A stretch of 64,000 bases of DNA from Candidatus Zhuqueibacterota bacterium (GTDB lineage: Bacteria > SM23-31), in assembly GCA_042564455.1 (NCBI GenBank), contig JBHPLC010000001.1, forward strand, positions 23,172 through 87,171. Direction: 5' to 3'. Both the position numbers and the translations under genes were made by a program. Positions 20,743 to 58,950 of this stretch are shown here, one piece after another; the stretch's first letter is position 1, and the number at the start of each line of letters is the position of its first letter. The notes under the pieces are model-generated. The model was given only the letters and a program-made list of their open reading frames with translations, ran no database searches and was not told the origin of the DNA.

Positions 20743-20816
20743 TGCGGGGTGGAGCAGTCTGGTAGCTCGTTGGGCTCATAACCCAAAGGTCACCGGTTCA
20801 AATCCGGTCCCCGCTA
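20743..20816 (+). tRNA. tRNA-Met(CAU), initiator type
   Basis: Cloverleaf read by eye: acceptor TGCGGGG/CCCCGCT, D-arm GAGC-AGTCTGGTA-GCTC, anticodon arm TTGGG-CTCATAA-CCCAA (CAT at 20777-20779), T-arm ACCGG-TTCAAAT-CCGGT. Three consecutive G-C pairs in the anticodon stem and a 1:72 mismatch are initiator hallmarks. Near-identical in layout to E. coli tRNA-fMet. CCA is not encoded. Confidence 0.85.
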
Positions 20817-20827
20817 CAACAATAAAA

Positions 20828-20866
20828 ACAAGGACTTAGAGCTTGAATCTGAGTCCTTGTTGTTTT
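20828..20866 (+). terminator. tRNA terminator hairpin; copy A of a 3-copy conserved element
   Basis: ACAAGGACT (20828-20836) / AGTCCTTGT (20852-20860) with a 15-nt loop TAGAGCTTGAATCTG, followed by a T-rich tract. Related copies occur at 48817 and 58915. Confidence 0.6.
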
Positions 20867-21026
20867 ATATATCATAAATTCCACTGCTATTCCCACCATA
20901 AATGCTTTTTATATGTAGTATTTGGAATATATATAGAATAATTATCAAAAGTATTCTGATTTAAACGGTAAAATATTTCAATCTAAATCATTTTCAATCA
21001 TTGTCAGGTAATAATATACTAACTGC

Positions 21027-21069
21027 TTGACATTATAATTGTATTTTGCTATATATGTGTACGTTAACA
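21027..21069 (+). promoter_or_regulatory. Putative promoter of the LacI-family regulator with candidate LacI-type operator
   Basis: TTGACA 21027-21032, a 17-nt spacer and TATATA 21050-21055. This is followed by the imperfect palindrome TGTGTACGTTAACA (21056-21069), which has a central CG as in LacI-family operators. Confidence 0.4.
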
Positions 21070-21121
21070 GTTTCATTTTTCCATCTCCTTTCTTGTCACC
21101 GATTTTTTGTGAGATCCCTCA

Positions 21122-22156
21122 ATGGTAACAATAAAAAACATAGCCGAAAAGGCCGGTGTATCAATTGGTACAGTAGATCGGGTTTTACATAACAGGGGGA
21201 ATGTATCAAAGAGAAATGCAAAAAAAATTCAAGATGCGATTGAAGAACTAAAATACCGGCCGAATATTTTTGCCCGAAATTTAAAACTCTCAAGAGATTT
21301 TTCCTTCGGTGTATTAATGCCTGAAGTATCTCAGGACAGCAGCTACTGGCAGTTTCCTGAGAACGGTATTAAGAGAGCAGCCAATGAACTGAGTAAACAG
21401 CGCATTAATGTCTCGTTTTTCCATTACGACAGATATTCGCAATTATCGTTCTCTCAGGCATGTCATAAGATTCTGGAGTCAAATCTTGACGGTCTGCTTA
21501 TTGCTCCGGTTCTGTCACACATTGCCAAAGAGTTTTTAGAGAATATTCCAGAAAACCTTCCTTATGTGTTTTTTGATTCTGTAATACCCAAAACACCTTG
21601 TCTATCGTATATAATTCAGGATTCGTATTTAAGCGGAAGACTGTCAGCTAAGTTAATAAAGATGATAATCAAAGAACCGGGAACAATCGCTGCAATTCGT
21701 GTACTCCCGGAAGACTTCCATATTAATGAACGTATAAATGGATTCCAGTCCTTTATTTCTGAGAATAATTCATTGAATCTGGTTATTTATGATGCATTTC
21801 GTGAAGATGATGTTTCTGTCTTTCATGAACTTACCGAAAAGATAATTTCAGAAACAAAGGACCTGAAAGGCATATTTGTGTCCAATGCACTTACCTGGTG
21901 TGTTGCCAGATATTTTGAATCTGTTAAAATGAAAAACAGAATTCGAATAATCGGTTATGATCTCATTGAAGAAAACAGGAATTATCTTAAAAACGGATAT
22001 ATAGATTTTCTGATCAGTCAACAGCCGGAAATGCAGGGATATCAGGGTATCTATGCATTGTACAGGCATGTTGTGCTGAGTGAAAAAATCTCTGAAAAAA
22101 TTATGATGCCCCTGGATATCATAACAGAAGAAAACATAGATTATTACGCACATTAA
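21122..22156 (+). CDS. LacI-family transcriptional regulator
   Basis: N-terminal HTH 'VTIKNIAEKAGVSIGTVDRVLHNRGNVS' and a periplasmic-binding-protein-like C-terminal domain. Confidence 0.9.
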   Translation: MVTIKNIAEKAGVSIGTVDRVLHNRGNVSKRNAKKIQDAIEELKYRPNIFARNLKLSRDFSFGVLMPEVSQDSSYWQFPENGIKRAANELSKQRINVSFFHYDRYSQLSFSQACHKILESNLDGLLIAPVLSHIAKEFLENIPENLPYVFFDSVIPKTPCLSYIIQDSYLSGRLSAKLIKMIIKEPGTIAAIRVLPEDFHINERINGFQSFISENNSLNLVIYDAFREDDVSVFHELTEKIISETKDLKGIFVSNALTWCVARYFESVKMKNRIRIIGYDLIEENRNYLKNGYIDFLISQQPEMQGYQGIYALYRHVVLSEKISEKIMMPLDIITEENIDYYAH

Positions 22157-22175
22157 ACTTATCAGGAATATTACA

Positions 22176-56196: not shown

Positions 56197-56390
56197 GAAT
56201 GGTTATTCTCCATATCAGTTATTAAAAAGTTGGGATATTGTTTTCTTAGATTCTGACATCAATTTAATAAATGACCGTGTCAATCGCAAATATAATACCG
56301 AATTATTGAAGCCATATTTCTAACAACGGTTTTTATTAGTTTTGTAGACCTTGTGCTCAGATAAATTTAATTATTTACATAGCATTTATC

Positions 56391-56517
56391 ATGCAATTCA
56401 GGAGGTATTCTTTTTATTTATTATTTTATTCACCACAGAAGTGTAGAAGTGCAGTGTGAAGGTATGAAATATCCTGAAATAGAATTGATAAATTACACTT
56501 TCACTAAAAGAATGTAT
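56391..56517 (+). repeat. Intergenic conserved element R2 (copy of R1)
   Basis: See R1. It shares TTATTCACCACAGAAGTGTAGAAGTG and the flanking blocks, in the same orientation. Confidence 0.7.
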
Positions 56518-57009
56518 GCCTCAACTTTTTAAACCAATGACTTCAACTTGTTCTGACGAGTTCAATATGCAAAGCCATATTTCAGCGTATTTTATTATTT
56601 TACACAATAATGAAAATTAATTTGACTTCTCTTATAAAAAAAACATGACAATTGTTTTTGTGAATATTATACTATTTATCAGTCAGAATGATGTCTGTGT
56701 GTGGGGTATAAGGCGGACTCTGGCTAACTTCAATAAATGTTCTAATATCAAAGTATTTCTGCTAAAATATTATTCTGAAACATTTTTGAGCTGGCCTGAC
56801 AGTAATATATTAATTAAGTATGAATTTCGATTATTTTTCTGTTCTTCATTAAGTAATATTATGAGGATATAGGGAATATCTAACAGTATATTGCACCAGT
56901 GTTAATATATCATTAGTATCATAAAAAATATTCAATATTCTATGGAACAAAATCTATTTTTATTTGTAACAATGATATAACCATTAATAAATAGTCCATT
57001 GATCTGGTA

Positions 57010-58557
57010 GTGAATATGAATTCTGCTGGTTTAAAAATATATTTTTGCTGTTGTTGGTTTCTTTTTACACTGCTTATATCCGTATACTCATGCAAAAAAT
57101 CACCAACCGAGCCTGTTAACTCAAAATCGGTAATTAGGAGTATTTCTGCCGATCCATCCTATTTAGACTATCTTTACTCGGACACATCAGCTTATTCACT
57201 TATAACTGTTTCCGCATATGATCCAGATGGTGATAAACTTACTTTCAGCTTTTCAGCATCAAAAGGTGAAATACGTGATGTGTCGGACAGCACTGCAAAG
57301 TACTTTCCTGAAGAATTCACTGGTATGGCAGAAGTCACCTGCAGTGTGAGTGATGGGGAATTGACCATTGAGGATGAAGTAGGTATTTTCGTAAATTACA
57401 AGGAGAATATTCCGCCTAGAATAAAAGGATATTTCAGGCATCCGCATAATACGTTCATTGATGAATTTGGAGTAGTTAATCCGGTTGTATTGGAGGTAAT
57501 CGCAGAGGATTCTAATAATGATAAGTTGACTTTTACATTCGAGGCAGAACAGGGAATTTTATCTGAGCAAGACAGCAATACAGTAGAATATACCGCACCG
57601 GCAGGAGTTGGAGATTATCTAATAAACTGTATTGTGACTGACTGATTTGATTCTGATTCAGGGAATTTAACAGTAAATGTATCAGAATTATCGTACCATC
57701 TTCAGCATTACACAAGGATAGCATTTGCTTCCGACAGGTCAGGGAATTATGAAATATATACTATGCGTCCTGACGGATCGGACCTTAAGAGATTAACTAC
57801 CAGTCCAGGTTCAGATACTGAGCCTGACTGGTCTCCTGATGGATCAAAGATCGTTTTTACATCGACACGCAGCGGAAGCAGTGATATATGGTTAATGGAT
57901 GCGGACGGATCTAATCAGACTCAAATTACAGATATTATTCATTCAGAATTTTATCCTCGTTGGTCACCTGACGGATCGAAAATAATGTTTACAGTTGATA
58001 GTTTTCTTGCGATAGATTTACATTTAGTAAATCCTGATGGTTCAAATATAGAATTTACTCAGTTCAGAAGATATCCATATGCAACAAGATTTGGGGATTG
58101 GTCTCCTGATGAATTAAATGTTGTATTTTCATCACGCGTTTATAGTGAGTTTAATTTATTCAAATCCAATATTAATGGTAATACATGGATCCAAGTGACT
58201 TTTGATGATAAAAGAGAATACTACCCTTCCTGGTCACCTTTATGAGATGAGATCGTATTCAGATCGGAAAGAACAGAGGGTTATTCTACAAGGGATATAT
58301 TTAAGATAAATACAGACGGAAGCGGATTGGTAAATTTATCTAATACCGAAGTTCATGATGATCATCCTGCCTGGTCACCGGATGGACAGATGATAGTTTT
58401 CGATTCAATGAGGGACTGGCCACCGGGATATGTAGATCCTCACGTTATTATATACACGGAAATATATATGATGAAATCAGACGGGACTCAACAAACGAGG
58501 CTGACTTTTGTTAAATCCCGGAATATAACACCTGCCTGGTCACCGATAATTAAATAG
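57010..58557 (+). CDS. Lipoprotein with two Ig-like domains and a TolB-like WD40 propeller; two in-frame TGAs (57643-57645, 58243-58245)
   Basis: Lipobox 'VYSCK'. Track ORFs 57010..57645, 57763..58245 and 58327..58557 are all in one frame and are separated only by single TGAs. The codons after each TGA continue the repeats ('IAFASDRSGNYEIYTMRPDGS', 'DEIVFRSERTEG...INTDGSG'). WSPDG repeats run throughout. Confidence 0.6.
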
Positions 58558-58611
58558 CAGTAAAACCATCATTAACTGATTTTCTTCACAAAAAGGGATG
58601 GAACGCCTCAG

Positions 58612-58655
58612 AAACCGGGATAGCTTAAGTATTATGGTTATCCCGGTTTTACTTT
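58612..58655 (+). terminator. Intrinsic terminator
   Basis: AAACCGGGATA (58612-58622) / TATCCCGGTTT (58639-58649) followed by T-rich sequence. Confidence 0.7.
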
Positions 58656-58914
58656 TATGCTGGAAGTAAACTTATTTCAAGCGAGAATGCATATGACACT
58701 TCCAATCCTGGAGTATTATATTCCAATAAAATACCTGATTTTACAAGAAAGGCGGCCCTTAACGAGTCGCCTTTTTCATGTGAGTTAAGTAATAATCTGG
58801 GATTTCTTACTTTCCTTAGGCGGAGAAAAGTACTTCTTAATAACCTTCTTCTCAAGTTTGCCTGCCTGTGACATGGCCTAGGCGGACAAATCCAGTCAAA
58901 GCTATAAATCAATT

Positions 58915-58950
58915 ACAAGGACTCAGAGCTTAAATCGGAATCCTTTTTTT
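58915..58950 (+). repeat. Copy C of the tRNA-terminator element
   Basis: ACAAGGACTCAGAGCTTAAATCGGAATCCTTTTTTT. The upstream 'AAATCCAGTCAAAGCTATAA' resembles the copy-B flank (AATCCAGGTGTC...AAAGTATAA) with the T-arm/acceptor segment deleted. Confidence 0.55.

Follow-up and report, generated by a model that had tools for sequence, protein, structure and literature searches.

The subject of this analysis is a 64,000-nt stretch of DNA from Candidatus Zhuqueibacterota bacterium (GenBank assembly GCA_042564455.1, contig JBHPLC010000001.1, positions 23,172 to 87,171 of the forward strand), hereafter called the window. The assembly is a metagenome-assembled genome (MAG) of 2.95 Mb in 231 contigs and is 72% complete. 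In the window, an intact initiator tRNA gene is followed by three co-oriented modules (A, B and C), in which tRNA-derived sequence adjoins a terminator hairpin or its remains. We consider it moderately likely that the DNA from the tRNA to ~58.95 kb arose by site-specific integration at att sites derived from tRNA genes and is an island region of composite make-up, degenerate and without an integrase. For the organism, an uncultured sediment bacterium, this means that a region of 28-38 kb for the utilisation of arabinan/arabinose, with the initiator tRNA gene as its anchor, was probably acquired horizontally.

Three tRNA-derived modules in one orientation

The only tRNA in the window is a tRNA-Met(CAU) on the + strand, which was detected by ARAGORN (20743-20816/7) and Rfam (65.2 bits). 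Read directly, the gene at 20743-20817 shows all three hallmarks of bacterial initiator tRNAs: the G:C triplet in the anticodon stem (GGG/CCC at 29-31:39-41, standard tRNA numbering), a 1:72 mismatch (U1.U72) and A11:U24. It is directly followed by module A (20818-20860, + strand), which consists of the trailer CAACAATAAAA and a 33-nt terminator hairpin with a perfect 14-bp stem. Further on lie two tandem ~10-nt repeats, TTCCACTGC and TATTCCCACCA (20879-20898, + strand).

A 21-nt motif, ACAAGGACTYAGAGCTTRAAT, ties the three modules together. It occurs at 20828, 48817 and 58915, always on the + strand, and has no fourth copy in the assembly; shuffled sequences gave none. Calculated RNA folding energies are -20.8 kcal/mol for hairpin A (z -6.8), -7.1 for B (z -1.7) and -6.4 for C (z -0.65). 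Only hairpin A, a stable hairpin followed by a T-rich tail, qualifies as an intrinsic terminator, and hairpins B and C are indistinguishable from shuffles in folding energy. The fall from A to B to C shows that the decay is progressive. B and C have a stem-breaking G-to-A change in common, and all three modules have the loop GAGCTTRAAT, where relatives combine the same stem with other loops. Since this loop is shared, the modules are recent paralogs of one another.

The tRNA part of module B (48760-48805, + strand) starts at the second base of the anticodon stem, ends with the discriminator and includes the complete anticodon arm. It is 46/48 identical (E 4e-16) to positions 29-76 of the elongator tRNA-Met gene on contig C210 of the same genome, and the match ends just past the 3' end of that gene. 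Module B begins 5 nt past the stop codon of a DUF89 gene (48752-48754), and a 5' half is missing. The tRNA part is followed by the trailer CTAAAGTATAA with the decayed hairpin (48806-48847, + strand) and by two to three degenerate tandem repeats, TTCCACCA TTATTCACACCA TTTAACACCA (48870-48899, + strand; p = 0.07 for the alignment to the repeats of module A). Rfam gave no tRNA match for modules B and C, even with permissive thresholds.

Three other origins of module B were considered and ruled out. A piece displaced from the initiator is excluded by the 46/48 match to the elongator gene. Nor is module B the ancestral locus; it is an extra copy, since synteny with three complete relatives on the 5' side of the C210 gene marks that gene as the orthologous elongator locus. 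A hybrid-tRNA intermediate, in which an elongator-type element entered the initiator gene and an initiator-type element came later, is excluded because both half-sites of the module B anticodon arm, as well as its loop, are elongator-type.

Module C (58885-58945, + strand) comprises a remnant, CAAATCCAGTCAAAGCTA, a trailer and a decayed hairpin. The 30 nt in front of this hairpin (58885-58914) can be aligned, in the same register, to those in front of hairpin A, where the initiator has its T-loop, acceptor strand and trailer (CAAATCCAGTCAAAGCTATAAATCAAT versus CAAATCCGGTCCCCGCTACAA--CAAT). Measured against random genomic 30-mers, this register match has p = 7.5e-4; the same test against module B gave p = 0.06. 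On the strength of the match to A, we assign module C to a decayed initiator T-loop, acceptor and trailer. Unlike in A and B, no tandem repeats follow hairpin C.

Two separate terminator-like hairpins (AACCGGGATA...TATCCCGGTT and AAAGGCG...CGCCTTTTT) were seen at 58600-58790, between a TolB-like gene and module C. Since they precede module C, hairpin C is not needed to end that gene.

An earlier sequence-only reading of this DNA had thus been right about the intact initiator tRNA(CAU) at 20743, about three same-orientation modules with progressive decay, and about module B starting 5 nt after the DUF89 stop without a 5' half. It had erred in its main view of module B as a degenerate initiator-type piece, next to which it had allowed for a different tRNA(CAU) gene as the source of B and C, and in stating that module C had lost its T-arm and acceptor.

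A tRNA terminator of the family and attP-like arrangements

Going by the source names of homologs, the organism belongs to a KSB1-like lineage. In all six other genomes of its GTDB family, the M23 peptidase gene precedes the initiator tRNA as it does in the window, and the same stem (AAGGACTYAG...CTRAGTCCTT) recurs 10-14 nt further on in a hairpin whose loop is different. A pattern search for this stem class in the seven family genomes yielded 17 perfect hairpins, every one of them located 10-14 nt behind a tRNA or tRNA fragment. Fourteen directly follow the last gene of a tRNA operon (initiator, Val-Asp, Gly-Cys-Leu, Gln-Glu or Arg) and the other three follow tRNA 3' fragments; none was found after a protein gene. 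The elongator Met gene of one relative (G002) is followed by a variant with one stem mismatch. By these positions, the hairpin is a tRNA-specific terminator of the family and not a general one. The sequence-only reading had named as its own refutation that the element might be a common terminator after unrelated genes. This explanation is rejected, as the exact motif is present at three sites only and the stem class is confined to tRNA genes and fragments in seven genomes.

Hairpin A resembles the Rho-independent terminators of tRNA operons in that a strong GC-containing stem and a T-rich run are located 11 nt past the tRNA. It differs from them in one unusual respect: the stem is conserved across different tRNA operons and genera, while the loop is free to vary. 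Hairpins B and C are too weak to count as such terminators.

Hairpins of this class are usually followed, after ~20 nt, by two or three tandem ~11-nt repeats similar to TATTCCCCACAC. Two such repeats are found downstream of a tRNA-Asp of the same genome (contig C159), and they are the same as those behind module A. At two loci beside integrase genes, such repeats occur on either side of a tRNA fragment. At 415 kb of genome G006 (locus L094), the order is a divergent integrase gene, two repeats, ~110 nt, a tRNA-Asp fragment that starts in the anticodon stem, its trailer, the hairpin and three repeats. The order is the same at 33 kb of the organism's own contig C177, beside a 370-aa integrase encoded at 33260-34372, with a GIY-YIG cassette interrupting it; the stem of the C177 terminator hairpin differs in sequence from the AAGGACTYAG class. 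The left boundary of module B coincides with the start of these integrase-linked orphan fragments at the anticodon stem, and likewise with that of an initiator fragment in G005 (see below).

The integrase of phage lambda binds arm-type sites on both sides of its core, P1 and P2 on one side and P'1-P'3 on the other. Both integrase-linked loci have the same geometry, with two repeats on one side of the core and two or three on the other, in the same orientation and next to the integrase gene. We therefore interpret them, from the arrangement of their sequence elements, as attP-like sites of the lambda type with candidate arm-type sites. The window is different: modules A and B have one arm only, on the P' side, and lack an adjacent integrase gene. 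In addition, the arm holds a tRNA 3' end and a terminator, which a lambda-type attP does not. The repeats at 20879-20898 would accordingly be candidate arm-type integrase sites of a P' arm. The combination of tRNA 3' fragment, AAGGACTYAG hairpin and tandem TATTCCCCACAC-like repeats can serve as a signature for old and active integration sites in this poorly known lineage.

One further place in the genome may be another element end. On the minus strand of contig C206 (5950-6420), a terminator hairpin and two tandem repeats, TACTCCCAACAC and TATTCCCAACA, have no tRNA nearby and are followed by open reading frames of 385 aa and 509 aa whose family is unknown.

The locus in relatives, its cargo and metagenome reads

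All family contigs examined share the gene order of the left flank of the initiator tRNA (Mo-oxidoreductase, response regulator (receiver), M28, M16, M16, HAD, M23, tRNA). The tRNA is the exact point at which synteny with each of the relatives breaks off, and the right flank is different in every lineage. In G005, a 0.86-kb insert at this locus is bounded by a duplicate of initiator positions 28-76, starting at the first base of the anticodon stem, together with hairpin and repeats. L090/L091, L092 and G003 contain small GIY-YIG cassettes with a duplicated initiator 3' part at the same place, and G001 has an integrase pseudogene 3 kb downstream. At L088 (12176-13780), a decayed pseudo-initiator right after M23 is followed by an AIRS-domain gene and then by the intact initiator with a different terminator. 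Taken together, the 3' flank of the initiator tRNA gene looks like an integration hotspot.

The GIY-YIG loci deserve a description of their own. A small gene (81-90 aa, PF01541) is located inside a tRNA gene or fragment at L090 12301-12800, L092 12100-12749, L005 1-1400 (G003) and C177 32700-33110. Upstream of it there is an intact or regenerated 3' part with its own terminator, and downstream the displaced 3' fragment with the native hairpin. This arrangement is present at four independent places, three of them initiator tRNAs. It looks like a minimal tRNA-targeting mobile cassette. Four paralogs of the gene are found in this genome (C177, C167, C176 and C86). A palindrome similar to repetitive extragenic palindromes, TCCCGC(N3-6)GCGGGA, takes the place of the anticodon arm's 3' side in the C177 fragment and in the pseudo-initiators of G003 and L092. 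About 45 copies of it exist genome-wide, often clustered (e.g. C21 4349-4720, C180 3716-7800 and C212 6623-7050), with none in the window.

The interval between modules A and B holds two blocks of genes on the + strand, which were annotated with Pfam. The first (21122-39862) encodes LacI, an araB-like FGGY kinase, an araD-like aldolase, a FucI-like isomerase, an SSS symporter, HAD, GH127, an unknown protein, M61, a second GH127, GH27/NPCBM and an unknown protein of 635 aa. The second (39955-48754), which was undetected in metagenome run X2 (see below), encodes two sortilin/BNR-like proteins, a GH51-like arabinofuranosidase and the DUF89/ARMT1-like protein. According to Pfam and open reading frames, the interval between B and C (48900-58884) contains a sortilin-like gene (- strand), ~1 kb without a convincing gene, a PQQ/BamB-like propeller, an XRE-DHH-receiver operon (- strand) and the Ig/TolB-like gene, which has in-frame TGAs.

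Distribution of the cargo is patchy. Only one of the six family genomes has the FucI-like isomerase (67% identity), which also occurs in another family (72%), and the kinase-aldolase-isomerase-symporter order is kept in those relatives at 63-84% identity. GH127 is absent from the family and 68-72% identical in G010, whose M23 is only 36% identical. Identity of the cargo to distant relatives exceeds that of core genes, and on these two grounds we regard the cargo genes as accessory and exchanged. The sequence-only reading had said that the intervals look accessory, and for the genes at 21.1-48.75 kb our data agree. The stretch at 29-44 kb is the GC-richest of the assembly.

Two observations concern neighbouring genes. 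The sortilin/VPS10-like BNR family (window 39955-52225 and ~17 other contigs) has ~20 paralogs of 25-61% identity in the 2.9-Mb assembly. A functional link across module B through the sortilin-like genes was considered and rejected, given this number of paralogs and only 37-40% identity of the right gene to the two left ones. Right of module C, a CBS-domain protein and a Na/sulfate-type symporter (59177-61282) are syntenic and 79-82% identical in G004, where core proteins reach 43-60%. G004 has two copies of the symporter, and the CBS-symporter pair was confirmed there on one contig; it is probably another exchanged cassette.

Read evidence consists of a few low-depth, sparse Logan contigs, which show presence better than absence, and no run holds the organism at depth. 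Run X4, found with window positions 5-15 kb as query, matches the left flank, the island and the DUF89/B junction with read-size contigs of 100% identity; a contig of 151 nt spans the junction. Run X2, found with the 22-32 kb query, has ten read-size contigs of 98-100% identity, all within 20770-39626 and five of them outside the query region. At this low depth, X2 yielded no pieces in 2-20.7 kb, even at 82% likeness, nor in 40-60 kb. Its leftmost contig (20770-20917) begins to align on the first anticodon-stem base, covers hairpin A and the repeats, and has three differences, by which the trailer becomes B-like (…AGTATAA) and the hairpin C-like. Runs X1 and X3 contribute two or three pieces apiece, again confined to 21.4-30.6 kb. 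In one X3 contig (likeness 82% or more), position 20818 at the tRNA 3' end is joined straight to 20770, the start of the anticodon stem; here an initiator tRNA, from some related organism, has a second copy of its 3' part directly behind it. If the contigs are taken as they stand, a copy of the 20.8-39.6 kb segment occurs elsewhere, without the flanks of this genome. For presence or absence of the intervals as units, a check that the sequence-only reading had proposed, X2 has the segment at 20.77-39.6 kb without flanks, at low depth, and the collections contain no close relative for a direct comparison.

Origin of the region

Integration into a tRNA gene with duplication of its 3' end is a textbook mechanism. 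We infer that the junctions in the window have such an integrase origin, that the repeats bind integrase, and that events took the following course. Elements would have integrated at tRNA-derived att sites by means of tyrosine-type integrases, and the recombination genes would since have been lost. Module A may represent the regenerated, attL-like target, in which the chromosomal 5' part of the tRNA is joined to a 3' part, trailer, terminator and tandem arm-type repeats supplied by the element. Module C would be what is left, heavily decayed, of the former 3' end and terminator of this initiator gene after their displacement. Module B could have come from a sister element with elongator tRNA-Met as its target and would be the tRNA-homologous core of that element with a P'-type arm, left behind within the island. 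It may have reached its place, for instance, by homologous recombination between P' arms that resemble each other, by integration at a pseudo-site behind DUF89 or by loss of a P arm. The hairpins would have begun as the tRNA-operon terminator of the family, and those of B and C are probably relics that no longer fold well. This reading draws on the paralogy of the modules, the confinement of the hairpin to tRNA genes and fragments, the orphan fragments beside integrase genes, the synteny break at the tRNA, the duplicated initiator 3' parts and the integrase pseudogene in relatives, the patchy cargo, the X2 contigs and the register match of C to A. The sequence-only reading had proposed tandem island accretion. 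Its general notion of integrative-element scars at a tRNA gene is supported; that of two successive displacements of the tRNA's own 3' end is not. Simple tandem accretion at one tRNA fails because module B is non-cognate, with both half-sites of its core elongator-type.

Several findings weigh against this interpretation of the region as an island built at tRNA-derived att sites. No integrase, excisionase or remnant of either was found in the window by Pfam on all large and many small open reading frames or by tblastn, and PF00589 had no match on contig C1; the sequence-only reading had likewise noted no integrase or recombinase. Module B lacks P-arm repeats and adjoins an intact DUF89 gene; the cognate remnant in module C is only ~18 nt long and decayed. 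Composition and reads place no unit boundary at module B, and near 40 kb, where the reads do place one, no att-like feature was found. Base composition, another of the checks suggested earlier, is atypical at third codon positions (GC3, 90-98th percentile) only for the genes at 30.8-39.9 kb; the ara genes, LacI and DUF89 look native. High-GC windows elsewhere in the genome coincide with sortilin-like paralogs. Module C is no clean border between core and accessory genes, because the CBS-symporter pair to its right also looks transferred. Finally, no empty site was seen, as the collections searched contain no genome whose M23 is closer than about 50% in amino-acid identity; a search of 5.8 billion proteins gave 50% for the best M23 homolog. 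A pattern scan of metagenome contigs for close relatives gave chance matches only, and a scan of genome contigs gave nothing.

The same modules could have arisen from local tRNA history without integrases, if extra tRNA-Met genes with the family terminator were truncated and decayed while unrelated genes came in by ordinary recombination. Whole pseudo-initiators in relatives (G003, L088) fit such a history, as does the missing integrase, and in three complete relatives the elongator gene is located 98-351 kb downstream of the initiator on the same strand. It is difficult to reconcile with the start of module B exactly at the anticodon stem, which is shared with four independent orphan fragments, two of them beside integrase genes. 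Moreover, C210 carries the orthologous elongator locus, an elongator gene is not found near the initiator in any of the relatives, and A and B carry the tandem repeats that flank att cores elsewhere. We regard this history as rather unlikely.

A smaller probability is given to the idea that the duplications were made by GIY-YIG cassettes, which inserted into the initiator tRNA gene with their own copy of the 3' part and were later deleted. Cassettes of this kind separate the intact initiator from a displaced 3' fragment in L090/L091, L092 and G003, and interrupt the tRNA fragment on C177; a G003 fragment that begins in the T-loop resembles module C. Against this, tblastn detected no GIY-YIG remnant in the window, the cassettes are ~0.4 kb and not 10-28 kb long and have a different terminator, and module B is elongator-type.

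A chimeric contig, joined at short repeats, might be suspected in a MAG of this completeness and fragmentation, and run X2 indeed lacks the flanks. We judge such an artefact to be very improbable: the longest exact stretch between any two modules is 18 nt, too short to mislead the usual assemblers, the 151-nt contig of X4 crosses the DUF89/B junction, and an X2 contig continues from the tRNA through hairpin A to 20917. Convergence of independent terminators, to which the T-runs behind both B and C might point, is effectively refuted by three matches where none is expected, the shared loop, the significance of the adjacent tRNA-derived sequence and the TolB-like gene's own hairpins upstream of module C.

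As interpreted here, the region is an integrase-less island and represents a known type; islands anchored at tRNA genes, with their fragment scars, have been well characterised (PMC4383910). Genomic islands integrated in tDNA are defined by Islander (Hudson, Lau and Williams 2015, PMC4383910), which takes its sublocation classes from Williams 2002 (cited there) and distinguishes two common attP classes, anticodon-centred and T-stem. Like these islands, the region has an intact tRNA at one end, a co-oriented 3' fragment downstream and accessory metabolic cargo, with boundaries at the anticodon arm (module B) or the T-loop/T-stem region (module C). Unlike them, it has no integrase gene, module B is non-cognate, and the cognate module C is short and decayed. 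The region would not be called by Islander, and since module B is non-cognate the signature holds only for the A-C pair, a further point against our interpretation. Islander also lists 125 tandem arrays of islands at one tDNA (PMC4383910). The window shares with such arrays several co-oriented tRNA-derived fragments 3' of one tRNA, more decayed with distance; in a true array, every island comes with its own integrase and a cognate fragment, whereas the window has neither and its middle fragment comes from another tRNA. The value of the region consists in its annotation and a few testable side leads, not in a new principle.

A tentative idea, to which we assign a low probability, is that modules A and B are the P' arms of two sister elements with near-identical trailer, terminator and repeats and with different cores (initiator versus elongator tRNA-Met). 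If true, the window would record a switch of integrase target between two tRNAs with a CAU anticodon, whose loops share TCATAA. Module B, a complete elongator-type core with arm, could then still act as a landing pad, and islands could accrete at non-cognate att sites located on islands. Several tRNA operons of this KSB1-like family may, in addition, have received the combination of tRNA 3' end, terminator and arm sites as a portable cassette.

Outside the region, the left flank contains two BNR lipoprotein genes with in-frame TGA (12858-15088) between M28 and M16. Since relatives have XdhC/DUF6263 or nothing at this position, the two genes represent an insertion into an otherwise conserved gene order.

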